Position numbers and translations under genes: made by a program. The notes beneath the pieces were generated by a model. That model saw only the letters and a list, made by a program, of their open reading frames with translations. It was not told the origin of the DNA and did no database searches. Below, piece by piece: positions 28,209-44,379 of a stretch of DNA of 64,000 bases (positions within the stretch are counted from its first letter, which is position 1; each line of letters starts with the position of its first letter). This DNA comes from Desulfomonilia bacterium (GTDB lineage Bacteria > Desulfobacterota > Desulfomonilia > UBA1062). The DNA lies in assembly GCA_050014195.1 (NCBI GenBank), contig JBEKDT010000012.1, forward strand, positions 64,001 to 128,000. Reading direction: 5' to 3'.

Positions 28209-28273
28209 AGATCTCATTTGAATATCTGGAATAATCTCGATCTATAAAAATCAGATAGTTATCGCAGGGATCT
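28209..28273 (+). repeat. Array site 1 (long-flank type)
   Basis: AGATCTC-ATTTG-AATATCT...AAAATC-AGATAGTT-ATCGCA-GGGATCT. Confidence 0.85.
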
Positions 28274-28435
28274 ATTCTTTAGTTGATCTAATGAAGATTA
28301 CGTCCTTTAAAGACAAGGTTCTTATTATCATCACCAAAAAGAATGTGAATTTAAGTCTATTTGTAAATTTCGTATTGAAACCATTATCTATGTACTCGAT
28401 CATAAAATGACACTATGCATATAATTGAATAAGCA

Positions 28436-28678
28436 TTATTTTTTAAGTTTCTTGGCGAGGTAGACTCTCAACGGGCATTGACAAAAATGCCTTAACCCGA
28501 ATGACAGAGCAAAGGAACAATTAGCAGGATTCTTCTCAAGGCAGTTGAGATAGTTCTCCAGTCCAAAATCTGTTGCCTTGCACAAATGCTTGAAGCCTCT
28601 TTCTGAACACTTAAAGTTCTTAGGGCATTGCATTCCCGCCATGATCTCTTCAATCTTCTTCCTGTCTCCGTCTTTCAT
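28436..28678 (-). CDS. Cys-rich hypothetical protein, 80 aa; sole gene between sites 1 and 2
   Basis: RBS GAGGGA; CPKNFKC, LC, CLE, CSF, CQCPLRVY. Confidence 0.75.
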   Translation of the reverse strand: MKDGDRKKIEEIMAGMQCPKNFKCSERGFKHLCKATDFGLENYLNCLEKNPANCSFALSFGLRHFCQCPLRVYLAKKLKK

Positions 28679-28876
28679 GAATTCCCTCTTTGATGCATCA
28701 ATTAGTAGGGTATTATGCCAGGAAATCAACCCTGCCTGTGCAGCTGTTTCTTTAGTAGAATCCTAGGAAGTTTTGCAAGTGAAGATCTCTTCGATAAATG
28801 AGCGGTTTCACAAGACCTGAGAAACTGATGATAACGTGCCAGGTGCAACGCTCTGGTATAAAGTGTCTTGCTGCGT

Positions 28877-28940
28877 ATGTTTCAAACCAAGATCTTCGGT
28901 TTTCTCTCATCTCAAAACCGTGAAGAAATCGCGTGACTGT
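28877..28940 (+). repeat. Array site 2 (with a degenerate tandem copy at ~28783-28845)
   Basis: ATGTTTC-AAACC-AAGATCT-TC-GGTTTT-N10-AAAACC-GTGAAGAA-ATCGCG. Confidence 0.8.
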
Positions 28941-29231
28941 CGAAAAACTCAAAGTATGGAAAGTGACAAAAAAAGACCTCGTAGAATGACCTACGATGGA
29001 AGATCTTTGATCGGGGCTTGTGTTAGGAATCGACGATTGAATAGTAGAAACATAGGTACTCCATAAATAACAATCATAAGAACAATAAATCCTCATAAAA
29101 AGGTCTCAAGGTTATCAAGGATAGTTCTTAATCAGCTGCCAAACCTTACCAGCGGCCTCTTCCCCTTTCCCCTGGATCGAGGAGTTTGGTTGCCATCAAA
29201 ATAAACCTCAAGTAAGGGGGATGATACCGGG

Positions 29232-29396
29232 TCAGTCTTTAGTGCGGGTACGGGTCACCCCGGTCAAGATTCCGACGCCGACAAGTATGACAATCGCGAT
29301 CATCACATAAACAGTGCTCAATTTCGCGACAATAAGGGCCCACGCAATGCCGCCAATGACAAAAGCAAAACCGATGAGATAAATTATCAAGGACAT
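29232..29396 (-). CDS. Small two-TM membrane protein, 54 aa (not in ORF track)
   Basis: MSLIIYLIGFAFVIGGIAWALIVAKLSTVYVMIAIVILVGVGILTGVTRTRTKD; RBS AGGAGG. Confidence 0.8.
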   Translation of the reverse strand: MSLIIYLIGFAFVIGGIAWALIVAKLSTVYVMIAIVILVGVGILTGVTRTRTKD

Positions 29397-29446
29397 GGAG
29401 TTACCTCCTGCTGAACCCAGCGACTTTTTAGGATTTTAAGTTATAA

Positions 29447-29465
29447 CCTCCGGTAAAGCCGGAGG
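29447..29465. mobile_element. IS200/IS605-type terminal hairpin remnant
   Basis: CCTCCGG-TAAAG-CCGGAGG. Confidence 0.45.
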
Positions 29466-29672
29466 CTTGATTAAACATGAACCGCTCCAAGTGGCTTTAC
29501 CGGATAACAATTGTCCCTACCTGAACATGTTCATGTTCTGACATCTTGAATTTGGGCATACTGACTGATAGGTCTGTTGTTACATACACTTTATCCAGCA
29601 AAGAGGCCTTGATCATGTCTTTTTCATGTAATAGCACTGTTCGATCTTCTTTGCGTATCGACAAAGATCTCA

Positions 29673-30107
29673 TTATCTCCTTACGATGAGAACGGGCTTC
29701 TGTGCCTTCCGGACCACTGTATCCGTAACAGATCCAAGCAACATCTCAACGATATTGCTCTTTCCATGAGAGCCCATTATGATAGCCGATACATTTTCTT
29801 CCTCCGCCACCCTGAGGATCTCCCTGAATGGAATACCCTTATTAATTTGGGCCTTGGCGATAAAACCTTGTTCCTTTAACTCATCTTCCAGGCTGGAGAT
29901 CTCATTGAGCGCCAGTTCCTCCCATTCCTTCTCAACAGCAAGAGCATCTATCGCTGTTGAGTTGCGGAAAGAATCAATACCTCTCTCGTCAATGATGTAT
30001 AAAATGATCACTTCTTTAGTGCCTGCACCCTTTAATCCAACGATATAGGGTAATGCCTTTTTTGCGACTTCTGAAAAATCAGTTGGGTATAAGATTTTCT
30101 TAAACAT
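29673..30107 (-). CDS. Universal stress protein (Usp)
   Basis: KKILYPTDFS, IIMGSHGKS..LLGSVT..PVLIVR. Confidence 0.95.
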   Translation of the reverse strand: MFKKILYPTDFSEVAKKALPYIVGLKGAGTKEVIILYIIDERGIDSFRNSTAIDALAVEKEWEELALNEISSLEDELKEQGFIAKAQINKGIPFREILRVAEEENVSAIIMGSHGKSNIVEMLLGSVTDTVVRKAQKPVLIVRR

Positions 30108-30111
30108 ATTC

Positions 30112-30260
30112 CTACACTTTCTCCTTTTCCTCTCCACTGAAAGGGATCTTGAGTTCGTAGACAGCGGATTCCAAGTGAGTTTCTATGGGGTGTCCTGTCT
30201 TTGAGAACACCTTCATCATGGGGGTATTTCGTGCCAGGACATCTGCCGTGAATCCTTTAA
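30112..30260 (-). pseudogene. C-terminal fragment of a GNAT-domain protein, cut by a palindromic element at ~30270-30335
   Basis: IKGFTADVLARNTPMMKVF..YELKIPF; upstream sequence is CCTCGCAGC/CCTCGCATC repeats. Confidence 0.6.
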
Positions 30261-30466
30261 TCTCGTCCGGGTTAATTCCTCGCAGCTTTCTGCATTCCAT
30301 TTTGCTTTTTATACCTCGCATCTCTGCCGCCGGGTGGTTCACTTCTATTCCGGCTAGGCACCCCTCTTTTTTAAGCAGAAAGGAACATCCTCCGGCCGGT
30401 CGCCGTGTAGGAATGGGCGAGATTGAATCCTAGCGACTGTTCCACATCCCCGCTGGACCAGGATAG

Positions 30467-30658
30467 TTACTTCCCAACGTGGATATTGGAGAAGGAACTG
30501 AGAACTCCAAAAACGCTCAGGAGCCACAAGACAACGGCAATGACAACGACGGCATTCAAGATCGACTTGATGGAGCTCGCCATCGGGATGAATCGGTTGA
30601 TGAGCCAGAGAACAACACCAGTTACGACCAGGACTTCCACTACTTGAATTAAGGGCAT
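30467..30658 (-). CDS. Thivi_2564-family small membrane protein
   Basis: GVVLWLINRFIPMASSIKSILNAVVVIAVVLWLL. Confidence 0.85.
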   Translation of the reverse strand: MPLIQVVEVLVVTGVVLWLINRFIPMASSIKSILNAVVVIAVVLWLLSVFGVLSSFSNIHVGK

Positions 30659-30818
30659 GATCTAATTCTCCTTGTTTTGTCGACGAAAGCAGAACACTTA
30701 GGTCCGTTCCCGCTTATGCGCTGCTGGGTGAAGCCGATATGAGGTTCAAGCTCGCCGCCATACGTTCAAGAGCACTTGGCGCCATTTTTTGCACGTGACA
30801 CCAAACAAGCTCGGCCGC

Positions 30819-30974
30819 CTAAAGCCGACCCAGTAGCAGCAGGATGATCAGAATGACCAGGACAATTCCCAGCCCCCCGCTCGGGTAGTAACCCCACTCT
30901 CGGCTGTGAGGCCATGTGGGTATTGCACCTACCAGCATCAAAATCACGACGATAATCAAAATAGTTGCCAGCAT
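30819..30974 (-). CDS. Second DUF3309 small membrane protein, 51 aa (not in ORF track)
   Basis: GAIPTWPHSREWGYYPSGGLG; RBS AGGAGG. Confidence 0.9.
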   Translation of the reverse strand: MLATILIIVVILMLVGAIPTWPHSREWGYYPSGGLGIVLVILIILLLLGRL

Positions 30975-31039
30975 ATGGCTCCTCCTTTCAGTTTATCCGT
31001 GAACGTAGCGTTGGGCGGATACTTTCAACGGCCTTGGCC

Positions 31040-31140
31040 ATTTGAACTTTGAAGCCCTAGCTGTTGAAGGCAGTCTTGACATCCGTCCAGACGTTTTCTG
31101 TACCTGTCTTGAGGTCCTCCCATGCATCATCGCCGTTGGC
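31040..31140 (-). pseudogene. Fragment of coiled-coil stress protein (sll1863-like)
   Basis: NGDDAWEDLKTGTENVWTDVKTAFNS followed by a premature stop. Confidence 0.55.
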
Positions 31141-31232
31141 CCTTATCCTTCCCCTAAGGGGATGGCCGTAGGAGGACCCTCACCACTGCGCCAGAAAGTC
31201 AACCCAGGTTGCCGATTTTATAAAAAATTCTA

Positions 31233-31802
31233 CTAAAACCGATTTAGATCCGTTTCCAATGAGTCAAGCCGATGGGAAATGTCTGTTCTCTCCTCGTACG
31301 TGGCGTATCTGCCTTCTTCCGTCATCCGAAAATAATCACTCCGGATGGCGTCTAGTCTGGCTTGAAATTCTCTCCCCTCTGTCTGAGGCAAGCGCCCGTT
31401 GGTTCTTCCATCATCGATTCTCCTTTGGAGTGAGACAATCCTGTCCCCATTCCTTGGTTCTCTTGGTTGTTCAATTTTTGCAGGCCGGGCAAGCGCTCTG
31501 TCGATCTCCGCTCCAAGCGCATCAAGTCTTATATGAAGCTTGTCCCATTCGTCCCGCTCGACCCTTTTGTCTCTCAGCTCCGTATAGTCTGTTCGAATAC
31601 CCTTCAGTGTCGTGAGAAACATCTGGGACTGATCAGGGCTAAGCGCACCGGATTTCAGCCCATCCCCGATCTTCTCCTGGATTACAACCATCTTGCTCTC
31701 TGCATTCCTTTCAGAATCCGGCCATGTTTGGATAGTAGCGCAGCCCGAAAATAAGGCTAATCCGAAAATCGTTAACACTGACAGCAGAATAACCTTCTTC
31801 AT
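31233..31802 (-). CDS. Helical-repeat lipoprotein, hypothetical
   Basis: Lipobox FSGC; two internal repeats (I.DG..SG.L); RBS AGGAGG. Confidence 0.8.
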   Translation of the reverse strand: MKKVILLSVLTIFGLALFSGCATIQTWPDSERNAESKMVVIQEKIGDGLKSGALSPDQSQMFLTTLKGIRTDYTELRDKRVERDEWDKLHIRLDALGAEIDRALARPAKIEQPREPRNGDRIVSLQRRIDDGRTNGRLPQTEGREFQARLDAIRSDYFRMTEEGRYATYEERTDISHRLDSLETDLNRF

Positions 31803-31812
31803 TTGTCACCTC

Positions 31813-31872
31813 CTATTTTACAATCAGGTCGTTTTTCACCGATTTGACACCCTCAATGCTGTCGGCAATCTC
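31813..31872 (-). pseudogene. 3' remnant of a BON-domain gene
   Basis: EIADSIEGVKSVKNDLIVK*, similar to the end of the 11132-11446 protein. Confidence 0.6.
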
Positions 31873-32042
31873 TTAAGAGTGCGGTTATCAGCCCGACGCA
31901 GACGAGGAATTTCACCATACGATCTCGTTTTACCATACAGGCATCTCCTTTCCCGTAGAGGACCATATGAGGAATTCCATGGAGTCCTTTTTATTGGAAC
32001 CTTATGTATAATAATCATCAGATTGTTCCGGGCAAGGTTGCA

Positions 32043-32266
32043 TGACACATACTATCCCCTGGTGAACTCGATAGGAATGTCCCCATGTGAGTTTGATAGA
32101 TCGGCCTCATGTAGGGGCCATGGGGGTTTTAGTGATGAGCAGGAAGGAACGGGTACGGTTATAGGTAATGGGATGGAAGGAGCGGAGCGGGATCAGCCTT
32201 GTAATGGCCGCAGAGGCGATGGGAGTAAGCTATCGGCAGGCGAAGCGGATCTGGAAGCGATACAGG
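32043..32266 (+). mobile_element. ISNCY/IS1202-like left end + transposase N-terminal remnant
   Basis: AACTCGATAGGAATGTCCCC end motif; ORF from 32120 MGVLVMSRKERVRL*..AAEAMGVSYRQAKRIWKRYR (HTH) with an internal stop. Confidence 0.65.
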
Positions 32267-32540
32267 CCGGCTGTTCAGGGATGTTGACAACAACGTCTTC
32301 AATGATGAAGGACTGGCAGGCTACTACAAACCCGGAAGCCCTTTCTTCGTCGGTCAGCTGTATGTCTGATTTACATGCAACAGAGCCGCGGGTTATCTGG
32401 ACCAGGCATTTTCCACAGGTCCCTTTTCCTCCGCAGGGCAGCTCGATCATGATCCCTGCCCGGCCCGCGGCATCCATGAGCAAGGTGCCGGAAGGGACGT
32501 CTATGGTTTTTCCTATGGGAAGAAAGGTGATTTTCGGCAT
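32193..32540 (-). pseudogene. Duplicated 5' part of the RACo gene: complete [2Fe-2S] domain fused to antisense IS sequence
   Basis: Near-identical to 27779-28056 (six substitutions seen); CGGKGTCGKC..AC retained. Confidence 0.85.
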
Positions 32541-32693
32541 ATGAATTTTAGTCTTATCTTTAACTGGACCCCTCACCCTGACACTCTCCCCATAATTATA
32601 TGGGAGAGAGAGGACTGGAGATTCATGGCTTTTATGTATCATACTCCCTGTAGATCATCATGCATAAAAACTTTTTTATTCTCTCATATGCAT

Positions 32694-32758
32694 AGATCTC
32701 ATTTGAATATCTGGAATAATCTGGACCAATAAAAATCAGATAGTTATCGCAGTAATCT
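32694..32758 (+). repeat. Array site 3 (long-flank type)
   Basis: AGATCTCATTTGAATATCT...AGATAGTTATCGCAGTAATCT. Confidence 0.85.
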
Positions 32759-32782
32759 CTACTCTTGAGTTTGCTTAGGATG

Positions 32783-32816
32783 AAAAAAAGCAGGGCCTGA
32801 AATTGACCCTGCTTTT
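32783..32816 (-). terminator. Intrinsic terminator of PEP-CTERM gene 1
   Basis: AAAAGCAGGG..CCCTGCTTTT hairpin with T-run on the minus strand. Confidence 0.8.
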
Positions 32817-32837
32817 AAAATCTTGAGAACCGTAATG

Positions 32838-33359
32838 TTACTTTTTTATCTTCTTTCTAAACCCTGCTAAACCTAACAGACCAGAGCCCAGAAGGAGTAT
32901 GGTGGTCGGTTCAGGGACAGGGGCGCCTTTATCATATTTGAGACATAAAGTGGATGTATCAAGATAGAAAGGAGTTAGACAATTTTTATATGTCATACAT
33001 ACATCAAGGTTTTCTCCAAGATCCCATGTGGCAAATGTACCAGTAATATCGAAAGTTTTATCTCCCCAAAAGAATAATTTATTGTTGCTTATGGTACCCG
33101 TGAAATCATCATTTACATACACCTTATCTTTACTTGGATTTATAAAGAATCCACAGAGTGTAAGTTTTGCTTTGGTTACCACGTCAGGCGGAACCTCAAG
33201 CCCTAGGGGTGTGGGCTGTACCCATGATAGTGTTCCGGAACCAAACAGGTGAGCTTTGTCTAAATCTACTGTACTGGTAAAAACAAGAGCATTCCCTACA
33301 CTACTTACAGCGAACAATAAAACAAATACGCTCAAACAAGAGATAATAACCTTTTTCAT
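32838..33359 (-). CDS. PEP-CTERM sorting-domain protein 1
   Basis: Signal peptide; VPEPTTILLLGSGLLGLAGFRKKIKK. Confidence 0.93.
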   Translation of the reverse strand: MKKVIISCLSVFVLLFAVSSVGNALVFTSTVDLDKAHLFGSGTLSWVQPTPLGLEVPPDVVTKAKLTLCGFFINPSKDKVYVNDDFTGTISNNKLFFWGDKTFDITGTFATWDLGENLDVCMTYKNCLTPFYLDTSTLCLKYDKGAPVPEPTTILLLGSGLLGLAGFRKKIKK

Positions 33360-33398
33360 AATAAACCTCCCAGTTGTTGTTATTGTTAGTTTAAATAA

Positions 33399-33593: not shown

Positions 33594-33726
33594 GTGATCT
33601 TTTATTCTGACAGAGGCAGATTACTATCTTGCTGGTTGAATAAAAGCCCTCCGCCATCCTGGCTGGCAATTGAAAGTGTAGATAACGTGCCAATCGTTAC
33701 GCTCTGCCGTGATATGACAATTTCGA

Positions 33727-33788
33727 AGATCTGTTCTCAAGATCATCAGTTTTATTCATCTTAAACTGAGATGATATCTTAGTGATCA
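33727..33788 (+). repeat. Array site 4
   Basis: AGATCTG-TTCTC-AAGATCA-TC-AGTTTT-N9-AAACTG-AGATGAT-ATCTTA-GTGATCA. Confidence 0.8.
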
Positions 33789-33861
33789 ACAACATTGATT
33801 GAGGTGAATTATCATGGTAGATGCGGTTATCCATTAAAACACGTTAAGGTAATCATTAAAG

Positions 33862-34317
33862 ATGAATAAGCTGAAAACTGTTCTCGTTTATTTTATAGTC
33901 TTATCCTTGGGAATTGTATGTGGAGGTTATTTGTTCTCCCAATCACAACCCAGATCATTTTTATCAATATCGAATTGTCAACATTGTTTAAGTGAGAATG
34001 ATCTTGTCGGGCTGCTTGCCTCAGTCGGTATACAAAAATTTTCTAAGCTTATCCCTTCTGTTGTATTCGAAACGGACAAAACAATCGCCATTAAGATCCC
34101 GGATACACAGGTTCGTTATCACTATGTCATTATTCCTAAGAAAGACATCAAGAATATCGGTGAACTTACTGATGCCGATGCTCAATATTTAATTGATACA
34201 TTTTTTGTAGCAAGAAAGATCATTGAGGATAAGAACTTATTCAAATATACCCTTCATACAAATGGACCTGGTATTCAAGACGTTACATATTTACATTTTC
34301 ATTTGATAGCCGAGTGA
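33862..34317 (+). CDS. HIT-like domain protein with N-terminal TM/signal
   Basis: HYVIIPKKDI, NGPGIQDVTYLHFHL. Confidence 0.85.
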   Translation: MNKLKTVLVYFIVLSLGIVCGGYLFSQSQPRSFLSISNCQHCLSENDLVGLLASVGIQKFSKLIPSVVFETDKTIAIKIPDTQVRYHYVIIPKKDIKNIGELTDADAQYLIDTFFVARKIIEDKNLFKYTLHTNGPGIQDVTYLHFHLIAE

Positions 34318-34668
34318 CACCGCATCTACCACCACTGTCCCGATCCGCTTCTGATATAAATCGCTTCGCCCTTAATCCTTCAACCATTTCCTATTTACTC
34401 GATGGGAAAACGCAGGAGTCTGCGCTTTTGTGGAGATGCAAGGACGTGTGTCATACCTGGCATCTCAAATAACCAGTCTATATACGTCCTGAGCAATAGT
34501 CCATTCATGAACTCACCCACTTGGGATAGAGGGAGCAAATCAAAACTCTTCCTGCTCGAATAAGGCGATCTTATCTTGAGATTGGTCCTAGGTATCAATG
34601 CCCATCGTGATATTATCGCATGGCATGGCATCAAATGTGGGTTTCAAGATGATGTGGGAAGGAATGAG

Positions 34669-34734
34669 AGATCCTGGATAAGATATTATGGTTGAGTAGA
34701 TGGAGGTGGGATTGATGAGTTATTGCAGGGATCT
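34669..34734 (+). repeat. Array site 5 (degenerate centre)
   Basis: AGATCCT..AAGATAT...GATGAGTTATTGCAGGGATCT. Confidence 0.65.
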
Positions 34735-34764
34735 TTATTTTTCATAGGGTATAAAACGATAGTC

Positions 34765-35160
34765 TCAAAACGGTGCACACAAATAGGACATGAAATTATT
34801 CAAGCCTTTATCATCTTTTCGTGTGAAGATAATTGCCATCCCTGAATCAGTCTTCCGCACCACTTGCCCGATGACCCAGATTACCTTGCCGAACGGCTCT
34901 ACATTAAGGCTAGCACTTACAAAACCATCAACATTAGGGCAATGCCCTGTCTCAACGAACATTCCACCCTTGCTGATGTTACAGACTCTTCCCATCCTGT
35001 TCGCATAATCATTGTCACGATAAGAGAACATCATGTTTACCCTTACTCTCTTATAAGCCCGCTGATTATCCGTAGTCTGAGATATTTTTGCATGAGAAAT
35101 AATTGACGTAGGTTCTTTCAAAACAGTATCCTCCACTTGCAAGCAAAACAGTATAACCAT
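34765..35160 (-). CDS. PilZ-domain protein filling the gap between sites 5 and 6
   Basis: QRAYKRV (RxxxR), NISKGG (D/NxSxxG), GQVVR..GMAIIF. Confidence 0.85.
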   Translation of the reverse strand: MVILFCLQVEDTVLKEPTSIISHAKISQTTDNQRAYKRVRVNMMFSYRDNDYANRMGRVCNISKGGMFVETGHCPNVDGFVSASLNVEPFGKVIWVIGQVVRKTDSGMAIIFTRKDDKGLNNFMSYLCAPF

Positions 35161-35206
35161 AAGTTAACCTGCCATGTCATTTGAATACATAATTAACATC
35201 ATCTAT

Positions 35207-35269
35207 AGATAATATTTCAAGATCATCGGTTTCTGGGCCTTACAAAACCAGAAAGTTATCGCAGAATCA
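35207..35269 (+). repeat. Array site 6 (intron-free reference copy)
   Basis: AGATAAT-ATTTC-AAGATCA-TC-GGTTTC-N10-AAAACC-AGAAAGTT-ATCGCA-GAATCA. Confidence 0.85.
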
Positions 35270-35304
35270 TCGCGTTAACAGTTAGACAGGAATAGATGAA
35301 AAAC

Positions 35305-35361: not shown

Positions 35362-35979
35362 TTACTTTTTCAGCTTTTTCCTGAACCCTGCTAGCCCAAT
35401 AAGACCTGATCCAAGAAGAATCATTGTACATGGTTCAGGAACAGGGGGAGTTTTTACAATTAGATCTTGAGCTTTAAAGGGAAGTGTTGTGGGTAGGGCC
35501 ATTTCAGCAATCTCATACCCTGTACCAGTATAATCATATCCTTTAAAATCTTCCATATATTTTGTGAAGTCAGCTTGGACTGTTGGATTACTGATATTAG
35601 TAATCTGTCCATACATAATATCCCATATTGCCAACTGCAATGCTGGAGTATCTGCTTTATTACCCTCTTTGTTAATCAACCATGCTGATTCATAACCAAG
35701 ATAGTCATGGTTTAGGTTGTTAGTAAGGGATACATTATAGTATGTATAAGGAACGTATGTTACATCATACAGGTCAACACAATATCCTGTTGTAGGCTGC
35801 CCATTAATGTTGAGATGAAACTGTCCAGCATACTCACCTGTAGGATTGCCGTTCAAATCAAAATTAACGTAGGTATAGTCATTGATGCTACCAGTAATAT
35901 TGATTGTATTTGCTCCTACTGATGCTGTGAAGCCAAGCACGATAAGTAGTAATGCAACTGTCATGGAAAATTTTTTCAT
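35362..35979 (-). CDS. PEP-CTERM sorting-domain protein 2
   Basis: Signal peptide; GYCVDL, ALQLAIW; VPEPCTMILLGSGLIGLAGFRKKLKK. Confidence 0.93.
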   Translation of the reverse strand: MKKFSMTVALLLIVLGFTASVGANTINITGSINDYTYVNFDLNGNPTGEYAGQFHLNINGQPTTGYCVDLYDVTYVPYTYYNVSLTNNLNHDYLGYESAWLINKEGNKADTPALQLAIWDIMYGQITNISNPTVQADFTKYMEDFKGYDYTGTGYEIAEMALPTTLPFKAQDLIVKTPPVPEPCTMILLGSGLIGLAGFRKKLKK

Positions 35980-36016
35980 ATTGACCTCGTAGATGTTGTT
36001 TTATTAGCGATTATTA

Positions 36017-36032: not shown

Positions 36033-36297
36033 ATTAACGTATGTCTTTGATATAAATAATTAATTACTTCAGACAGTATAAAATAGGGGTATTGGCGTAA
36101 TGGATAAAATAGAAATATATTTCCATAAAGATAGTAATTATTTACATCAATAAAATGCGTAGAACGGCCTATCGATTTCTATGATCATAGAACCAGATAA
36201 CTGTAAATCATACCATCTATAACTGATTGATAAGGTATAATTAATAGATTACGTTATTTGTCATGTGTCACACCCAGAGTTGGTTTGATCTTTTCAT

Positions 36298-37001
36298 AGA
36301 TCTTATTTCAAAATCATCGGTTTTGTGTGTCACGAATGCCGAGAGGCAATGCTGTGTAGGAGATGAGGGGAGGCCCCTCGGAGCCGGTTTACAGGAGCAG
36401 GCTTCAAACCGCCCTAAGCTGCGATGGTAAAGAGCCATGGTGGTGAGCGTTAGGGAAAAGGCGCAAGGAATGCGTCAGGTAGTATCGGAGAGACGAGCGA
36501 AAGCGAACCAATCGATGAGGCATCGAAAATGATCACAGATGATGTCAAAACCAGGGTCCAAAACTAACTCTGGGAACAGCTCAGAGGAAACCTGTTTACT
36601 GTCTGAGCGGCATCCGGTGTAGAGATGGTGTGAATCCGATACGGGCTTTTACACGGAACGTGAGAACCTGTCGTCTGGATGAGAAGGGAGAAATCCAAGG
36701 AGAGGCCCCCCGAGGATGAGAGTACCGATGCCAGGCACAGGGGCGGGACAGCTCGTAGTAGTGAAGAAGCTCCTGTAATGGGAGTGGAGCGAAGGGGCTG
36801 TGTTGTTCAGGAGGTATTTATTGATCAACCAGAAATGGGAGGAATCAATGAGTATTGCCAAGCCAAGCTATACGATTGGCTGAACAATGGGAGCCGGATG
36901 AGCTGAGAGGTTCACGTCCGGTTCTACGAGCAGCTGGGGGTGAAATTCCCCTGGCTGACTTTCCCAGGAATTTCAAAACCAGAAAGTTATCATAGGAATC
37001 T
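36298..37001 (+). repeat. Array site 7, split by a group II intron
   Basis: AGATCTTATTTCAAAATCATCGGTTTT | intron | CAGGAATTTCAAAACCAGAAAGTTATCATAGGAATCT. Confidence 0.85.
36325..36964 (+). mobile_element. ORF-less group II intron ribozyme (bacterial class D, RmInt1-like)
   Basis: 5' GTGTG; RmInt1-like D1-D3 (GGTAAAGAGCCATGGTGGTGAGCG, AAGGGAGAA, GAGAGTACCGATG); D5 GAGCCGGATGAGCTGAGAGGTTCACGTCCGGTTC; D6 GGGGTGAAATTCCCC; IEP reduced to MSIAKPSYTIG*. Confidence 0.92.
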
Positions 37002-37103
37002 TCAGTCCCATCTTCCAATAAGATATTTCATTTCATAAAAAGGAAGTGACTCATATACACTTTGTCTAATCTATTGAACTAGCCCAATTATGATGTTATC
37101 TTT

Positions 37104-37352: not shown

Positions 37353-37428
37353 TATAAACTTATAATCAAGGGTATGTATACGTTGCGGTGCCAGGGTGAC
37401 ATGCTTAGATATGGAGGCCTTGCTGCAT

Positions 37429-37491
37429 AGGTTTCAACTTAAGATCATCAGTTTCAGGCATTATAATACCGAGAAGAAATCGCAATAATCT
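37429..37491 (+). repeat. Array site 8
   Basis: AGGTTTC-AACTT-AAGATCA-TC-AGTTTC-N9-AATACC-GAGAAGAA-ATCGCA-ATAATCT. Confidence 0.8.
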
Positions 37492-37647
37492 TTACCCTAG
37501 AGAAAATAAGCTAAATCCCTTTTGATATGATTATAAATCATCGAACTATCAATGGCCGTTAGATCTTGCCACTGTAAGTCTTCTTAAATTTATCAAAATT
37601 AAAGGAGCATATACATCTCTCCTATAGCTCACCTATGATTCATTTTC

Positions 37648-37851
37648 TCACATATGCAATTTCAGCTCGATAATATATGAACCTTCTCCCGTTGTGTATT
37701 TCTCAACTCCTACACCGACATCACGCATTGTAAAGCCAGATGTTTTAGCCGTATTATCGATGTCCTTAATGCATTGAGTAAGCAATTTAAATATTTGTAT
37801 TTTAGTACGCTCAACATTTAATTTGTTGGCCTGTAGAGTTTTTTCCTCCAT
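37648..37851 (-). CDS. Hypothetical 67-aa protein under a sigma54 promoter
   Basis: RBS AAGGAG; MEEKTLQ...IELKLHM. Confidence 0.65.
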   Translation of the reverse strand: MEEKTLQANKLNVERTKIQIFKLLTQCIKDIDNTAKTSGFTMRDVGVGVEKYTTGEGSYIIELKLHM

Positions 37852-37953
37852 GACCGTTCTCCTTTTTCCTCGCATCAGGAGGATCATATGATGATATGTC
37901 TAAGATGAGTTCTAGTTGAAAGTGAATTTTGATAATATATCTAAGCTAGTGTA

Positions 37954-38116
37954 GGCAAATTATGTGCCATCACATAACAGTTTGATATATTTATTTTAAT
38001 TTTATCGTCCTTCCGAAGAATGCAAAGTAATTCGACAGTTCATTATGCTGTATACTTTATATAACATTGAAATTATTAATATTTATATAGGAGCATAACT
38101 GTTAAATATTTCGACA
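37954..38116 (-). promoter_or_regulatory. sigma54 promoter + two enhancer boxes of the PEP-CTERM type
   Basis: TGGCAC-ATAAT-TTGCC 37969-37954; TGCAAAGTAATTCGACA 38021-38037; TGTTAAATATTTCGACA 38100-38116. Confidence 0.8.
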
Positions 38117-38148
38117 GTTCAATTTGATATTTAACACCAATGAACTGA

Positions 38149-38248
38149 AGATTTCGTGCCATGGATCACGCTTAGCCTATAGTATATATCTCTTGAGTTA
38201 ATATCTGGTTGACCATAACTGAAGATGTCGTGACTCTATATGTGGATT
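38149..38248 (+). repeat. Variant array element (homologous to 42594-42691)
   Basis: AGATTTCGTGCCATG..ATATCTG..ACTGAAG..GTG..GGATT; two AGAT-N3-GTG boxes 74 bp apart in both copies. Confidence 0.7.
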
Positions 38249-38251
38249 GAT

Positions 38252-38336
38252 AAAAACCGGACCGCACAAGGGAGCGATCCGGCTTAAGAGGAGGTCAAAA
38301 GTCCGTTCGTCAAGGATGACGAGGAGAGTTTGACTG
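38252..38336 (-). ncRNA. Candidate ~85-nt small RNA
   Basis: TTGCAT-18-TAAACT promoter (38371-38342); 5' hairpin; CTCTCCTC and ACCTCCTCT motifs; terminator CCGGATCGC/GCGGTCCGG + TTTTT; no ORF. Confidence 0.55.
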
Positions 38337-38508
38337 ACAATAGTTTATAAGATCGACTTTGGAAAATGCAACCTTGACGATTCTATGCGGTCTTCTTGGG
38401 CTTCTCATGGGTGGTGTGGAAAGAACCAAAGAATCCTTCAATTCGTAAATCCCTTTTTCAACAGACTCTGCCAGTATCGGCACTCTTACATGATATGACC
38501 ATTTACAT

Positions 38509-39071
38509 ATATCTCATCCGGAGATCATCGGTTTTGTATGTCACGAATGCCGAGAGGCAATGCTGTGTAGGAGATGAGGGGAGGCCCCTCGGAGCCGGTT
38601 TACAGGAGCAGGCTTCAAACCGCCCTAAGCTGCGATGGTAAAGAGCCATGGTGGTGAGCGTTAGGGAAAAGGCGCAAGGAATGCGTCAGGTAGTATCGGA
38701 GAGACGAGCGAAAGCGAACCAATCGATGAGGCATCGAAAATGATCACAGATGATGTCAAAACCAGGGTCCAAAACTAACTCTGGGAACAGCTCAGAGGAA
38801 ACCTGTTTACTGTCTGAGCGGCATCCGGTGTAGAGATGGTGTGAATCCGATACGGGCTTTTACACGGAACGTGAGAACCTGTCGTCTGGATGAGAAGGGA
38901 GAAATCCAAGGAGAGGCCCCCCGAGGATGAGAGTACCGATGCCAGGCACAGGGGCGGGACAGCTCGTAGTAGAGAAGAAGCTCCTGTAATGGTAATGGGA
39001 GTGGAGCGAAGGGGCTGTGTTGTTCAGGAGGTATTTATTGATCAACCAGAAATGGGAGGAATCAGGGATCT
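38509..39071 (+). repeat. Array site 9, carrying the 5' part of the intron; only the terminal GGGATCT box of its right half remains
   Basis: ATATCTCATCCGGAGATCATCGGTTTT | intron fragment | GGGATCT. Confidence 0.8.
38536..39064 (+). mobile_element. Truncated second copy of the group II intron (D1 to start of D4; D5/D6 lost)
   Basis: Near-identical to 36325-36847; starts GTATG; has a GTAATG duplication. Confidence 0.9.
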
Positions 39072-39428
39072 ACAATCCACCCTTAGGAGAAGATGTCTCA
39101 AGTTGTTTATTAAAAGCAGGGTCTCATTATGCAGCCCCTGTCATGCAGCCCCTTGCCCGGAACAATCTGATGATTATTATATAAGGTTCCAATAAAAAGG
39201 ACTCCATGGAATTCCTCATGTGGTCCTCTACGGGAAAGGAGATAACTTTATGGGAAAATGGGATTCGTCATAGGAGTTTTTGTAATGATAGTTCTAGTGC
39301 TTGCGATTGTCTATTTTTAATGCATAGAACACAAGATTTTATGCAAGATACCATCCAAAAAGGAGAAATCGATGGAAAACATTTCTCAGGGAATGAGACA
39401 GATTTTGGATGAACAAATAGTATCTATA

Positions 39429-40295
39429 ATGAAGTCCAAGCTCTTGATTCTATTCGTAGTAGCGGCATTGGCCTCGCTTCTTTACCCACCCTTGGTATCG
39501 GCCACGCCAATACTGGGTTCGGCGCAGAGCTTCGCGGTTCTGGGTCACGAAACGGTGACCAATGGCCATAGCGCCCCGAACCCAACCACTCAAATATACG
39601 GGAATTTGGGTGTGACGCCAAAAACTTCGGTCACTGGCTTTTATCCTGACGGGACCGTGAGCGGAGGAACGATACACATAAATGATGGGGTCGCGCAACT
39701 TGCTCTGGCGGATGCAACGACTGCGTACAATACGCTAGCAGGCTTGCCGTTCGTTTACAACTATACTGGTTTTGTCCTGGGTTCAGCGGGATACACCACG
39801 CTCACGCCGGGTGTCTATCATTTTGACTCATCGGCTCAGTTGACAGGAGCACTCACTCTCGATTTCGAAAACGAGTCCAATAAGGACTTCATTTTCCAGA
39901 TAGGGAGTACGCTCACGACCGCAAGCAGCTCTTCTGTTAACGTCATCAATGGGAATTCAACTGACGGTGTGTATTGGCAGGTCGTAAGTTCTGCGACTCT
40001 GGGTTCAGACACTACATTCGAAGGAAATATTCTTGCTCTTGCAAGTGTTAGCCTTGATCCTCGCGCACAGATTCTGTGCGGGAGAGCCATCGCGCTAACT
40101 GGGGCAGTGTCGTTGATAGACAATCTTATCTCCAACAATAACACCGCCCAAAACTTCGGTAGCGGCCGCTCCGACTTCGGCAGCTACGGCTTCAGTGGCA
40201 GCGCGGCGCCGGTCCCGGAACCCTCAACCATGCTCCTCCTTGGCTCCGGGCTGCTTGGATTGGTGTCATTGGGGAAAAGGTTCAAGAAAGTTTGA
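39429..40295 (+). CDS. DUF3494 ice-binding-like protein with PEP-CTERM tail
   Basis: LGSAQSFAVL, A..DA..AYN.L, TLTPGVY, FIFQIGSTLTTA, VYWQV.SSATLG, F.GNILA; VPEP tail. Confidence 0.9.
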   Translation: MKSKLLILFVVAALASLLYPPLVSATPILGSAQSFAVLGHETVTNGHSAPNPTTQIYGNLGVTPKTSVTGFYPDGTVSGGTIHINDGVAQLALADATTAYNTLAGLPFVYNYTGFVLGSAGYTTLTPGVYHFDSSAQLTGALTLDFENESNKDFIFQIGSTLTTASSSSVNVINGNSTDGVYWQVVSSATLGSDTTFEGNILALASVSLDPRAQILCGRAIALTGAVSLIDNLISNNNTAQNFGSGRSDFGSYGFSGSAAPVPEPSTMLLLGSGLLGLVSLGKRFKKV

Positions 40296-40340
40296 TCAGG
40301 CGTAACAGACGCATTCTTCAGGGGGCAGGTCAGTAAGATT

Positions 40341-40437
40341 GAGATATATGAGGTTGACCCGCTAACCTGCCCCACGTGTTACGGCACGATGCGATACTGG
40401 CCTTCGTCGAGGAAGAGCCGGTAATCCGAAAATACTG
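40341..40437 (+). mobile_element. IS91-family transposase C-terminal remnant (frameshifted)
   Basis: IYEVDPLTCPTCYGTM / ILAFVEEEPVIRK. Confidence 0.7.
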
Positions 40438-40609
40438 CGTACAAAGAATCAGAAATTGGTGACGTGTTCACATTATTCCCCTGCAAGGATGAAAAATAGA
40501 AACGTCCCCTTTTCTCTTTGGGGAGAGGGGACTGGAGATTCATGGCTTTTATGTCTCATACTCCCTGCAGATCATCATGTATAAAAACTATTCATTCTCT
40601 CATATGCAC

Positions 40610-40674
40610 AGATCTCATTTGAATATCTGGAATAATCTGGACCTATAAAAATCAGATAGTTATCGCAGTAATCT
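40610..40674 (+). repeat. Array site 10 (long-flank type; flank homology from ~40520)
   Basis: Same ~150 bp as 28120-28267 and 32602-32752, ending ATCGCAGTAATCT. Confidence 0.85.
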
Positions 40675-40918
40675 CTGCTATCGGATAATTAAAACCATCA
40701 AAACAATATATTATAACACGATCTCTTCAATACGTTGTCATACTTTCTAAACTCTAAAGTTTTAAGAGTAAAAATCCGTTTAATACCATAGTGTAATTTC
40801 CTTATGTTGTTTCATGATTATTAGGTCACGAGAAGAAGTTCGATCTTAGAAGTTTTACAAGCAAATTAGTTCTCAGGAATGCTTTTATTACAGGCACCAG
40901 AACTGGAGGAAGGCGAAC

Positions 40919-42472
40919 ATGTTTAATATCATCAATAACATGTCAATCAGGTTGAAAATGGTTGGTATAGCAATCTTTGGTATTCTCTCTTTTGTATGTC
41001 TCCTTTCACTCGTTTATTACCTCAATTTCGATTCTGAGTTGAAAAGACTTGCAATGGCAGACCAGGAGACTCGCCAGCGGGTTTTCTGGCATCTACTTGA
41101 GGAAAAAGGCCAGAATATTGATATTGTCGACAACAAACTTAAGATTGGCAACTATGTAATCAATGATAATTTTGAGCTTCCTGATATGATGAAGAAACTC
41201 TGTGGAGGAACAGCAACTATCTTCATGCATGATGAGCGGGTATCCACCAATGTCATGACACCGGATGGTACACGTGCTATTGGCACGAAACTACAAGGTG
41301 CAGCATATGAAGCTATTTTCAATAATCAAAGATCATACAGGGGTTTGGCAAATATTCTTGGAACACCTTACTTTACCGCCTATGATCCTATTAAAAACAA
41401 CAAGGGAGAAATTATCGGGGTACTCTATACAGGTATTAAGAAAAGCGAATACTATGCATCATTCAACACGCTCATCACCCACATCCTCATACTGACACTT
41501 ATAGTTACTATTGGCACGGCTTTTTTGTGGATGTGGCTTGTAGATGGCATGATCACCAAGCCAATGAACTATGTCATCAGACGTATTGCTGATATAGTCG
41601 AAGGAGAAGGCGATTTAACCAAAAGGGTGGACACGCAAGGAAATGATGAGATAGGAAAGCTGGGTCAGGGGATCAATGCATTTCTAACAAATTTCGAAAG
41701 CATAATTGCTAAGGTAAAAGAGACGTCAACTCAACTAATTTCCGCTATACAAGAAGTTGACGCCGGTTCACAGGGACTCTCTCAAATAACCCAGGAACAG
41801 GCATCGGCTGTTGAACAGGTGGCCGCCACGATTGAACAGATGACATCGAGCATTAAGAATAATGCTACTCAGGCAGATAAGGGGCACACAATGACAAAAA
41901 GTCTGGTTCAACAGACTACTGTCACACGAGAGTCAACCAAAGATCTTATGAAGGCCATGGATGAGATCTCTATGTCTTCCAAGAAAATTGGGGACATTAT
42001 CACAACAGTGAACGAAGTGGCCTTCCAGACAAATCTCCTGGCCTTGAATGCTGCTGTGGAAGCAGCCCGTGCCGGTGAGCATGGTAAAGGATTTGCCGTT
42101 GTAGCCCAAGAGGTCAGATCATTGGCACAACGTTCAGCCGATGCCGCCAAACAGATTAAGGAAATGATAGAGGATAGTGTTAAAAAAGTTCAGGTTGGCG
42201 ATGAGATAGTTAAGAAATCTGTAGTTTCTCTAAAGGAGATCATTAATCATATCGACATGCTTTCCCAGACCATGGAGGAGATCTCCTCTTCATCAAATGA
42301 GCAATCCTCAGGTGTAGATGAAGTGAACAGAGCTATAAGCCAGATTGACACTACTACTCAACAGAATGCTTCCACGGTAGAAGAACTAGCTGCTGGAGCA
42401 AATATGCTGAGTAATGGAGCAGATGAGCTCAAAGAGACCGTTGAGCGTTTTAAAGTTTTAAATGAGGGATAG
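40919..42472 (+). CDS. Methyl-accepting chemotaxis protein (Cache-HAMP-MA)
   Basis: GGTATIF..RVSTNV..G.RAIGT.L (Cache_3/2-like), [31 protein letters not shown]. Confidence 0.96.
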
Positions 42473-42593
42473 GCATAATCTGTATCGATATTATTGATAT
42501 ACAAAATAATAAGAGACCCTTGTAATGTATGCCCCATGTTAAGGGCAACAACTTTGATATGAATATAAGAAAAATATCTTCTAAACAAAGCGT

Positions 42594-42725
42594 AGATTTC
42601 GTGCCATGACCTTCAGTTTATCCATATTGAATATTTCTTAAGGTTATATCTGTTTGATCCGGACTGAAGGTTATGTGCCACCACATGGATTCTTTCATCA
42701 GTGCGCATAGTTCTTCCCAAGATCA
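42594..42725 (+). repeat. Variant array element plus degenerate left box at the end of the array
   Basis: AGATTTCGTGCCATGACCTTCAGT..ACTGAAGGTTATGTGCCA..CATAGTTCTTCCCAAGATCA. Confidence 0.65.
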
Positions 42726-44374: not shown

Positions 44375-44379
44375 GATGA

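Follow-up and report, generated by a model that had tools for sequence, protein, structure and literature searches.

A genus-specific ~130-nt repeat element marks the breakpoints of a variable gene island and may be a non-attC recombination site

Introduction

The window analysed here (the whole stretch of 64,000 nt) comes from an uncultured bacterium of peat. Within it, the RACo and CdhD genes of a carbon-fixation operon (CODH/ACS) flank an island of 15 kb, which consists of small unrelated genes punctuated by copies of one repeat element. The question raised by this locus is whether the element is a recombination site at which gene cassettes are exchanged, or a repeat that accumulates in accessory regions. 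A preliminary description of the window had proposed a CALIN-like system for cassette capture and shuffling.

Sequence and extent of the element

A model (R1) was built from 23 element copies, and its matches in the window, listed at E<=0.003, all fell inside 28.2-40.7 kb. Allowing no more than 2 mismatches, the motif CAAGATCWTCRGTTT at the core of the element was found 9 times in the window vs 0.72 expected, with six of the nine matches on the plus strand between 28.8 and 38.6 kb; 0 of 100 shuffles reached 9. The repeated sites first described are thus real and non-random, while their unit, copies and range had to be corrected. The unit is ~130 nt long instead of a two-half site of ~64 bp, and reaches ~75 nt to the left of the start then assigned. 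It has one inverted repeat on the left (…TAGATWAC) and another on the right (TWATCTA…); between them lie, from left to right, the box GTGCCA, a middle part that is conserved, an imperfect hairpin and the motif ATCGCAG. The element is conserved in blocks. Even where the RACo orthologue of a species is no more than 71-72% identical, the copies of that species scored on a par with those of this genome. The two bases that follow the putative crossover were variable (TT, TA, AA, GA and others). Cores of attC type were present in a minority of copies (AAC in 5/23; TT after G in 7/23), in agreement with the earlier remark that RYYYAAC/GTTRRRY cores are absent.

Folding of the element is weak. An A.C mismatch was the commonest combination at the key stem pair (23 of 39 copies), RNAalifold predicted no consensus structure and folding energies were near those of shuffles (mean z -0.5 to -0.6; 39 copies), so that the covarying stem previously reported was not recovered. 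Neither an Rfam match nor a conserved small ORF was found for the element. Direct repeats of at least 4 nt, scored as target duplications, occurred in 4/33 copies vs 8% in mismatched controls, and repeat pairs within one copy were no more complementary than pairs between copies (5.49 vs 5.56 of 12, p 0.66). Target sites are not duplicated, and the left and right ends of a copy are not linked by subfamily.

Layout of the island

Features of the island are listed in Table 1. The sites are co-oriented, and most intervals hold one gene, unrelated to the others and in either orientation, as originally noted. Site 1 starts at the exact end of the RACo leader that is common to the same-genus genomes G007 and G011. 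Positions 27776-28278 recur at 32260-32763 with 98% identity, carrying along ~380 nt of RACo coding sequence in duplicate. The copies first placed at 28209, 32694 and 40610 are near-identical duplicates of RACo leader plus site.

Block 28289..28930 is entire in G003 at 95% and ends with ...AAATC of the element. The mosaic interval that follows also holds an IS200-end-like piece (29443-29534) and several dispersed repeats. Module X, here fused with the HIT gene, directly abuts the right end of an element at other places in the genome. The copy reported at 34669 is recognisable at its right end, but is weak and gave no R1 match at E<=1. The degenerate copy reported at ~28783 is a partial one and is inverted. 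The one at ~42709 was recovered as the degenerate terminal site.

Table 1. Features of the island and its flanks (positions in the window)
Feature	Position	Strand	Evidence or remark
RACo (corrinoid activator), left conserved flank	26161..28092	-	Pfam RACo_C_ter, Raco_middle, Fer2
Site 1, RACo-leader variant	28200..28285 (R1: 28203-28285)	+	putative crossover after G at 28267
Cassette (ORF 28436-28729, -) plus body of next element	28289..28930	+	comparison with G003
Inverted partial element	28770..28832	-	R1
Full element 2 (28877 of the preliminary description)	28821..28938	+	R1, E 5.9e-30
Mosaic interval, several genes	28939..32259	.	Usp 29673-30137 (-), ORF 31233-31802 (-)
Duplicated RACo 5' fragment, leader and site	32260..32769	+	site 32688-32769 (R1)
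PEP-CTERM cassette 1	32838..33359	-	sole cassette of G003 at this locus
Full element	33672..33798	+	R1, E 5.2e-21
HIT gene (33862-34317) fused with module X (34339-34574)	33862..34574	+	
Degenerate site, recognisable at right end only	34669..34740	+	missed by R1
PilZ cassette	34765..35160	-	
Element, right two thirds	35195..35271	+	R1
PEP-CTERM cassette 2	35362..35979	-	
Element interrupted by ORF-less group II intron	36251..37008	+	R1, Rfam
Full element	37374..37505	+	R1; small ORFs 37104-37352 (-) and 37648-37887 (-) either side
Element left half (to 38535) and intron copy 2	38466..39064	+	R1 match 38466-38561
Ice-binding-like PEP-CTERM cassette	39372..40295	+	
RACo-leader fragment copy 3 and site	40519..40688	+	site 40604-40688 (R1)
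Methyl-accepting chemotaxis protein cassette	40919..42472	+	
Degenerate terminal site and right flank	42589..42753	+	91% in G003; paralogue on C14
Dispersed repeat, unrelated	42754..43029	.	not at this position in G003
CdhD, right conserved flank	43034..44500	-	

Parasites at fixed positions

A group II intron that lacks an ORF (Rfam RF01999 and RF00029) occupies the same position in 3 element copies. In the split element of Table 1 the left half runs to 36324 and the intron from ~36325 to 36971 (R1 matches 36251-36350 and 36962-37008). What had been taken for the right halves of copies 36298 and 38509 is the 5' end of this intron (Rfam); the true right half of the former resumes at ~36972. 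Intron copy 2 breaks off at 39064; the intron stretch there has AATCAG as its end, which mimics the crossover motif, and is joined to the cassette start GGATC...

An IS110-family IS of 1,575 bp was found at one fixed element position in every copy examined, between left repeat and GTGCCA (8/8 left junctions, 7/7 right junctions). This is the position of the minor breakpoint class described below (TAGATWAC|GTGCCA). IS110-family sequence was detected only in the five high-copy genomes and in 0/9 genomes with 12 or fewer element copies. No parasite is known to be inserted at the right end, the position of the major breakpoint class. In Neisseria, the recombinase of the mobile element that targets dRS3 repeats is of the Piv/IS110 type.

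Dispersal in the genome and genus

The element is a dispersed repeat, genus-wide and genus-specific. An nhmmer search of the genome gave 105 matches at E<=0.01; at E<1e-4 there were 46 loci, and the copy number of this genome is about 85-105. Of the 46 loci, 26 are singletons, which occupy narrow gaps between genes and point either way with respect to their neighbours. Copies lie between convergent, divergent and tandem gene pairs, and neither their position nor their orientation relative to genes is constant. Twelve of 14 same-genus genomes contain the element, with 0 to >100 copies per genome. The statement that no copy lies outside 28-43 kb is correct for the window (R1), but does not extend to the genome. 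The site is not private to the array; dispersal of this kind, with many singletons, had been named in the preliminary description itself as evidence against its reading.

Comparison with relatives

RACo orthologues are present in G002, G003, G004, G007 and G011. In G003 (RACo 91% identical) a single PEP-CTERM cassette and one site lie between CdhD with the right flank and RACo, vs about a dozen cassettes in this genome; the cassette content of the locus thus differs between close relatives. An element lies directly upstream of RACo in two species, and the RACo leaders of G007 and G011 are without one.

From G003, 22 stretches with 55 elements were compared with this genome; they were chosen for holding elements and so over-represent variable regions. 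One element was collinear, 11 had their flanks at different places, 22 had one flank matched and 21 none, with common blocks 88-98% identical. In 0/11 two-sided cases were the flanks simply adjacent here and free of all element trace. Match ends within 40 nt of an element (n=20) fell at model positions 143-154 in 10 cases and at 45-58 in 3; since three of the 10 are copies of one cassette and two share one segment here, they represent ~7 independent right-end joins. Homology between the genomes thus mostly ends at a fixed site position: the main cluster is a ~10-nt window at the right end (…ATCGCAG|NNATC), with a lesser group at the left inverted repeat (3-5 joins).

A single crossover just after ATCGCAG fits most of 10 G003 junction panels, 1 G003 junction and 2 G002/G007 joins, some joins requiring 1-2 additional point changes. 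In one misfitting G003 panel the left-flank homology ends ~4 bases earlier, after AAATC; the window copy at this junction, 28877, reads ...ATCGCGT, not ATCGCAG. Pairs with homologous right flanks had a body identity of 0.60-0.72 in 6/6 cases, which is not above background (0.69 +/- 0.07). Among pairs with homologous left flanks it was 0.86-1.0 in four and at background in 18/22, the latter largely because another repeated module lies to the left of many copies. The element body is linked to the left flank alone. The sequence common to paralogous PEP-CTERM cassettes extends as far as the right repeat, but the element bodies before them differ. One cassette lies between two elements in both this genome and G003, in opposite orientation, and a gene pair separated by a full element in G003 is separated here by a decayed remnant only.

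In contigs of peat metagenomes, with run dates of 2017 and 2025, the local order was unchanged, and these contigs thus gave no sign of ongoing shuffling. Neither excised nor rearranged forms appeared in them.

Recombinases and integrons of the genus

No recombinase was found to travel with element arrays; recurrent neighbour families were PAS, TPR, ABC and similar. The tyrosine recombinase beside the C7 array was found in 0/12 same-genus genomes searched, G003, G004 and G007 lack the one beside the C19 array, and the one beside a C8 copy is a P4-type island integrase adjoining a tRNA fragment.

An integron integrase was not found in this genome. Integrases above the TIGR02249 cut-off were found in 8/14 other same-genus genomes, including G002, G003, G004 and G007, which carry many elements. 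Within 174 kb around intI genes (14 stretches, 8 genomes) no element was found at E<=1; these neighbourhoods hold canonical GC-rich attC repeats ending in GTTRRRY. Integrase and element counts are uncoupled, with 0 and 1 elements in the integrase-bearing G012 and G009, and 85 elements and no integrase here. The element is independent of the genus's integrons.

True integrons, whose canonical attC sites are unrelated to the element, occur in the genus; these were beyond the knowledge of the preliminary description.

Discussion

The element has a defined anatomy, is dispersed, is co-oriented in the island and has a fixed breakpoint. The points at which gene blocks diverge from those of close relatives coincide exactly with its copies, and in this it resembles an integron recombination site, although it is not one. 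That it is a new, non-attC recombination site bounding shuffled gene cassettes is the explanation we prefer, with roughly even confidence for and against. Strand exchange would take place at or beside the G of ATCGCAG, and a cassette would therefore consist of NNATC…, a gene and the body of the next element. Recombination would be conservative and proceed through circular intermediates: circles excised between two elements could re-enter at any other element, in the same array or at ~45 other loci, which may have shuffled cassettes among loci and enlarged an ancestral locus with one cassette into the 15-kb array. No gene emerged as a candidate for the enzyme, which is possibly a host tyrosine recombinase, or one missing from the assemblies. 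The rarer left-repeat breakpoint may stem from recombination between IS110-family copies, followed by loss. Of the CALIN-like system first proposed, the co-oriented sites around single genes, the differing content, the fixed breakpoint and the missing attC cores and integrase stand; the dispersal, the two-half architecture with its covarying stem, the lack of a linked recombinase and the lack of excised forms in metagenome contigs do not support it. The single-copy loci in tight gaps are what an ordinary dispersed repeat would give, and count against a recombination site. So do the lack of a linked recombinase, the weak folding, the variable bases after the putative crossover, the misfitting panel, the joins at the left repeat, the left-flank pairs with background body identity and the decayed remnant.

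Such a repeat (MITE, REP or NIME-like, lineage-specific and intergenic) could accumulate in accessory regions and have no cassette function of its own; this is the main rival, which we regard as unlikely while giving it real weight. It would be the landing pad of the IS110-family IS, the group II intron and perhaps others, and the joins would be made by recombination between parasites with precise loss, or between repeats. Singletons in both orientations and the copy-number range within the genus are consistent with this, but the ends of a copy are unlinked, target duplications are absent, and the analysis revealed no autonomous parent that shares its ends, the partial copies listed being intron-split or truncated. 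The IS, confined to high-copy genomes, and the intron at its one position make the landing pad plausible; the IS lies at the minor breakpoint, whereas the major class has no known parasite. The missing dedicated recombinase and the order stable in metagenome contigs also agree with a passive repeat. Against it, only 1/55 elements is collinear despite highly identical blocks, none of the two-sided cases has trace-free adjacent flanks, and homologous recombination would prefer longer conserved stretches over a 7-nt motif.

It is improbable, in our estimate, that the elements are divergent attC sites in CALINs (attC clusters without integrase), recombined in trans by integron integrases of the genus and frozen here after loss of the integrase. 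The geometry does match attC, in that the left inner …WAC mirrors R'' (…AAC) and the right G|TW… mirrors R' (G|TT…), with the putative crossover following G, and the intron and IS target the element as their relatives target attC (PMC3001079, PMC11187229). Element-rich genomes with integrases, and a stable array in this integrase-free genome, would also be accounted for. However, the 174 kb searched around intI genes hold canonical attC instead of elements, the two are uncoupled in number, and both the minority of fitting cores and the weak folding are at odds with attC. It is very improbable that the element regulates many accessory genes in cis, at the DNA or RNA level, as their operator, promoter, terminator or leader: block-wise conservation and the copy upstream of RACo in two species would suit such a role, but position and orientation relative to genes are not constant, Rfam match, conserved fold and small ORF are missing, and the RACo leader does without the element in G007 and G011.

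Comparison with known systems

MITEs such as Correia elements (~100-155 bp, ~100 or more copies; PMC3898611) resemble the element in size, copy number, inverted ends, intergenic position and variable loci. The element differs in lacking target-site duplication, end-to-end linkage and clean empty sites, and homology breaks inside its inverted ends, not outside. Neisseria dRS3 repeats and intergenic mosaic elements (NIMEs) are likewise short repeats with terminal inverted repeats, in hundreds of copies and intergenic arrays; a part in gene insertion and rearrangement has been suggested for dRS3, which is targeted by a mobile element (PMC3898611). Unlike the ~130-nt element, which flanks whole genes and has a mapped polar breakpoint, dRS3 is described as a 20-bp sequence flanking non-coding repeat units (PMC3898611). 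IS1111/IS110 elements, which have seek or bridge RNA as a guide, target REP sequences and attC sites (PMC11187229, PMC11208160), and this parallels the IS110-family IS at its fixed position; this likeness concerns the element's parasite, not its own function.

In Acinetobacter dif modules, short sites also bound gene modules that are invertible and shuffled between replicons by an enzyme encoded elsewhere (PMC13141974). These pdif sites are 28 bp long (XerC arm, 6-bp spacer, XerD arm) and alternate in orientation (PMC13141974), whereas the element is co-oriented; around either of its breakpoints neither pdif-like arms nor spacer symmetry were found.

From integron attC sites and CALINs the element is set apart by a sequence unrelated to the attC beside the genus's own intI, by cores other than RYYYAAC/GTTRRRY, weak folding, 46 loci with many singletons, no linked integrase, cassettes in both orientations and an extra breakpoint at the left repeat. 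It shares with them, as described in PMC4889954, co-oriented sites that separate single, unrelated, mostly promoter-independent genes, inverted ends around a crossover by a 3'-end G, arrays without a neighbouring integrase, and the role of landing pad for a group II intron and an IS110/IS1111-type IS.

Anatomy of the element

A 15-nt core motif of the repeated site occurred nine times in the window against 0.72 expected, and none of 100 shuffles reached nine, so the site is real. The unit of about 64 bp given in the preliminary description was too short: the real unit measures about 130 nt and reaches about 75 nt further left. From left to right it consists of a left inverted repeat (end …TAGATWAC), a GTGCCA box, a conserved middle, an imperfect hairpin, one arm of which carries two 2-nt bulges, the motif ATCGCAG, and a right inverted repeat (TWATCTA…). 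Conservation was block-wise, with a mean column identity of 62%. With a search model built from 23 copies (R1), 11 pieces of the window scored E≤0.003; they lie within 28.2–40.7 kb, and a single one is on the - strand. Three of the copies first described duplicate, almost identically, the RACo leader together with its site. One copy was marginal with R1, and another, originally taken as degenerate, is a partial copy in inverted orientation. At two further sites the stretch assigned to the right half proved to be the 5' end of a group II intron, by which both copies are split (coordinates in the table).

The inner stem had been described as covarying; in 23 of 39 copies its key pair is A.C, a mismatch. 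RNAalifold predicted no consensus structure, and the single-strand folding energy gave a mean z of -0.5 to -0.6 against shuffles (39 copies). Complementarity between left and right repeats was no higher within a copy (5.49 of 12 positions) than between different copies (5.56 of 12). An Rfam scan at gathering threshold returned introns and one tRNA and nothing else. Rfam holds no entry for the element; the accompanying literature survey covered known systems and was not directed at this organism.

A conserved module of about 50 nt with another ATCGCA motif lies directly left of some elements. At three places in the source genome left and right repeats stand face to face, 1–9 nt apart (reversed-pattern control: 0), and these might be sites that lack the element body. 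Insertion of the body into a palindromic target was rejected as a general origin, the genome holding only three uninterrupted TAGATWAC…GTWATCTA palindromes. Small ORFs reading from a 'CAT' just left of many sites were 1–31 codons long and not conserved. Read as a sigma-54 or sigma-70 promoter, the GTGCCA and TTGAAA boxes stand, judged by eye, in the wrong order or at the wrong spacing.

Distribution

In the source genome (4.2 Mb, 29 contigs), nhmmer gave 105 hits at E≤0.01 and a covariance model gave 85 copies. Elements occupied 46 loci, 26 of them with a single copy that nearly filled a short intergenic gap in either orientation relative to the neighbouring genes. Clustered copies were mostly co-oriented, and the largest array is that of the window. 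The element is a discrete, constrained and co-oriented unit at the borders of gene blocks. A cis-regulatory function is improbable, since position and strand relative to genes are not constant.

Of the 14 other same-genus genomes, 12 had R1 matches, at very uneven copy number, with up to 104 candidates scored per genome: at least 101 in G003, 69 in G011, 65 in G002, 53 in G007 and 24 in G004 (genome 71% complete), and 0–12 in the rest. One genome of a neighbouring genus contained eight copies; three other genera of the family and 12 genomes of another family contained none. Among one genome each for 185,579 species, a degenerate 24-nt core matched 15 stretches, all titled as uncultured delta proteobacterium or Desulfomonilia bacterium MAGs except a 1.5-kb contig from a bin titled archaeon. 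Viral contigs gave no match to this core.

Breakpoints between relatives

For comparison with the source genome, 22 stretches of G003 were selected because they contain elements; all genomes used are draft MAGs, and G003 was the only relative sampled deeply. Matching blocks were 88–98% identical, which identifies close relatives with scrambled accessory blocks. A collinear match spanned only one of 55 G003 elements, that at RACo. Both flanks matched, at different places of the source genome, in 11 cases, one flank in 22 and neither in 21. A clean empty site, with adjacent flanks and no trace of the element, was found in none of the 11 two-sided cases; one shows a decayed remnant.

Twenty match ends lay within 40 nt of an element. 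Three fell at model positions (columns of the element model) 45–58, four just past the right end and ten at positions 143–154; these ten include three copies of one cassette and two ends that share a segment of the source genome. Viewed base by base, left-flank homology continues through the element body and ends at …AAATCG or a few bases later, and right-flank homology starts at NNATC…, with unrelated element copies to its left. The cassette boundary lies at a fixed point beside the G of the 3' core, and the breakpoint at the right end is both narrow and polar. Judged by these alignments, a single crossover just after the G of ATCGCAG would fit most joins, with a few point changes allowed. 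The cassette of case 1a is the exception: its homology ends after AAATC, some four bases short of that point, and the window copy has ...ATCGCGT in place of ATCGCAG.

Element pairs with homologous right flanks had body identities of 0.60–0.72 in six of six cases, against a background of 0.69 ± 0.07. With homologous left flanks, four pairs reached 0.86–1.0, and the other 18 mostly reflect a further repeated module left of many copies. Paralogous PEP-CTERM cassettes likewise share sequence up to the right repeat and have different element bodies ahead. One cassette lies between two elements in both the source genome (C19) and G003, in opposite orientation. At C2:84.9 kb, compared with G002 and G007, the two genes that flank the element in the source genome lie apart in G007 and G011, on separate contigs. 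Joins of a minor class fall at the left repeat, between …TAGATWAC and GTGCCA.

The island between the RACo and CdhD genes

The island is flanked by the RACo and CdhD/ACS genes and thus lies inside the CODH/ACS operon. It encodes a universal stress protein, two PEP-CTERM proteins, a HIT and a PilZ protein, an ice-binding-like PEP-CTERM protein, an MCP and several small ORFs. The corresponding gap in G003, whose RACo is 91% identical, measures 1.5 kb, with the same right flank, one homologous PEP-CTERM cassette and one site directly upstream of RACo. The RACo leader of G007 and G011 is conserved to …ATTCTCT and diverges beyond; the site of the source genome and G003 starts exactly there. The RACo 5' end and leader are duplicated within the island, including about 380 nt of RACo coding sequence. 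Introns, an IS200-end-like piece and other dispersed repeats also contribute to the mosaic structure of the island. The solo IS200-like end carries a GC-rich hairpin, and a full copy with a Y1 transposase is located elsewhere in the genome. A different dispersed repeat of about 145–270 bp lies just downstream of CdhD, has copies on C3, C5, C9, C13, C15 and C21, and is not at that position in G003.

Positions of features, in window coordinates unless prefixed by a contig (C) of the source genome or a stretch (L) fetched from a relative
Feature	Position	Remark
RACo gene	26161-28092	left flank of island
RACo 5' end and leader	27776-28278
Duplicate of RACo 5' end and leader	32260-32763	98% identity
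Third, shorter leader piece	40519-40679
Element copies duplicated with the RACo leader	28209, 32694, 40610
Partial, inverted element copy	28783
Marginal element copy	34669
Intron-split element copies	36298, 38509
Group II intron	36325-36971
Group II intron	38536-39064	shortened
Group II intron	C24:1798-2493
End of cassette, case 1a	28930
Solo IS200-like end	29443-29534
Full IS200-like copy	C1:91962-92590
Sequence homologous to G003 cassette	32764-32924	PEP-CTERM
Dispersed repeat beside CdhD	42754-43029
CdhD/ACS	43034-47880	right flank of island
Tyrosine recombinase, 364 aa	C7:69927-71142, C7:130613-131839	fragment on C1
IS110-family gene	C7:138625-139647	DEDD transposase
IS110-family loci of relatives	L121-L128	G002, G003, G011
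Module left of element (examples)	C3:28808, C6:7372, C7:66005
Face-to-face repeats	C3:2205-2219, C7:159610-159632, C16:20653-20671
Ordinary attC arrays (examples)	L099:1-14000, L100:1-12999	beside intI

Metagenome data

Twenty-four peat or wetland metagenome runs (2017–2025), which may come from one campaign, hold 81–97% of sampled words of 32.6–42.6 kb. Contigs of four runs (2017, 2025) keep the local order, and a 3.5-kb piece crosses 33727, 34669 and 35207 without difference. No convincing excision joint was found in the contigs of these four runs, contigs being prone to drop rare variants. Among the listed joints, two belong to the RACo duplicates, which are 98% identical: one from 32605 to 28121, the other from 32693 to 40610. 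The latter is on a single short contig and lies inside the repeat, where 34 letters can be assigned to both sides. The remaining joints, with sides of 20–29 letters, probably derive from other copies.

Integron integrases in the genus

No protein of the source genome exceeded the TIGR02249 cut-off of 265, the best hits being Xer-like (83 bits). Integrases scoring 345–467 bits were present in eight of 14 other genomes of the genus (G002, G003, G004, G007, G008, G009, G012 and G013). Across 174 kb around intI (14 stretches, eight genomes) no element was detected at E≤1; the arrays beside intI in G007 and G002 consist of GC-rich repeats that end in GTTRRRY, i.e. ordinary attC. Element number does not track the integrase (0 and 1 elements in G012 and G009, which possess it; 85 in the source genome, which does not). 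The element is independent of IntI.

Candidate recombinases and parasites of the element

The preliminary description had proposed a site-specific recombinase encoded elsewhere. The search yielded no linked enzyme: tyrosine recombinases near arrays were either not common to the relatives or ordinary island integrases, and three serine recombinase genes of the genome, rejected as candidates, were not tied to arrays. A search for IS91/Y2 rolling-circle enzymes gave no match, nor did it in control genomes. Large sensor families apart, no protein family recurred near arrays. A 364-aa tyrosine recombinase gene is present twice in the source genome (97% identity over about 1.2 kb); one copy adjoins an element array, and a search of 12 genomes of the genus did not detect this gene.

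Two kinds of mobile element enter the site at fixed positions. One is a group II intron (RF01999 with domain V/VI RF00029) that measures about 650 nt, has no ORF and is present in three copies, 97% identical. Each copy follows GGTTTT, which places it at the foot of the hairpin (model position 120). The second of the two in the window ends prematurely at an AATCAG stretch, to which a cassette start is fused; this looks like use of a pseudo-site. An IS110-family gene occurs in the five high-copy genomes (the source genome, G002, G003, G007 and G011) and was detected neither in the nine genomes with 12 or fewer elements nor in the incomplete G004, a pattern confounded by descent. Copies of G002, G003 and G011 defined a 1,575-bp insertion sequence. 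In eight of eight copies a …TAGATWAC-like sequence precedes its left end, in seven of seven GTGCCA and the remainder of an element come after its right end, and the farther flanks all differ; it is therefore inserted at the left junction of the element. It is likely an RNA-guided insertion sequence with the element as natural target. Group II introns and insertion sequences related to these two parasites are known to target attC sites or REP sequences (PMC3001079; PMC11187229).

Proposed mechanism and rival explanation

There was no sign of cut-and-paste transposition of the element. No target-site duplication surrounds it, direct repeats of at least 4 nt being found at 4 of 33 copies against 8% in mismatched controls. 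From the joins we infer that elements would undergo conservative site-specific recombination between ATCGCAG and NNATC. An excised circle would then carry one gene and one element body and could re-enter at other elements, and such cycles could account for growth of the array at RACo, dispersal of small arrays and scrambling between species.

The main rival holds that the element is a mere landing pad and that all joins arose by recombination between parasites, followed by their loss. The insertion point of the IS110-family sequence is the exact place of the minor left-junction class, and the simplest explanation of those joins would be that IS110-type copies recombined and were later lost. 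For the major class at the right end, however, no parasite is known. Even if the rival were correct, the data would present a clear case of a repeat family that an RNA-guided IS110-type element and a group II intron both use as their dedicated target, and of landing pads that shape accessory-gene order even inside a core carbon-fixation operon.

Recombination at the element itself leads to a broader reading, which we offer tentatively and rate somewhat short of an even chance. One uncultured Desulfomonilia genus would possess, beside true integrons, a second and integrase-independent gene-cassette system with a site of its own (about 130 nt), a crossover fixed between ATCGCAG and NNATC, cassettes in either orientation and dozens of small chromosomal arrays. 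It would be old enough to have acquired dedicated parasites, the group II intron and the IS110-family RNA-guided insertion sequence, which enter the site at one fixed position each. The mapped crossover is testable by a plasmid excision assay. If the reading is true, surveys with attC models overlook entire classes of cassette arrays among uncultured bacteria of soil and peat.

Comparison with known systems

The element differs from a MITE in having neither a target-site duplication nor collinear presence/absence polymorphism. REP/BIME-RAYT and IS200/IS605 systems involve a Y1 (HUH) transposase that is flanked by the repeat or shares hairpins with it; of the two Y1_Tnp genes in the source genome, the one examined is IS200-like, with unrelated GC-rich hairpins and no element nearby. 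Xer dif modules have a 28-bp site of two 11-bp arms and a 6-bp spacer in alternating orientation, whereas the element sites are co-oriented; reading of the element consensus revealed no dyad around either breakpoint.

The cores RYYYAAC/GTTRRRY of attC are absent, as first described: the ends read …AGATWAC and GTWATCT…; AAC occurs in 5 of 23 copies, and the G is followed by TT in 7 of 23. The attC hairpin with extrahelical bases is not matched either, given the lack of RNAalifold pairs, the weak z and the mismatched key pair, though the hairpin is bulged. On cores, hairpin and integrase the element thus falls outside attC, and its arrays parallel integron and CALIN arrays in function. Neisseria dRS3/NIME arrays and Acinetobacter dif modules are looser functional parallels, and the element does not qualify as a member of either. 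To our knowledge, integrons are the only well-understood general system that captures and shuffles single-gene cassettes, and the origin of cassettes and their sites is an open question. If the element is a working recombination site, it represents an independent solution to cassette capture and shuffling, and its occurrence in the same genus as ordinary integrons allows the two to be compared directly.
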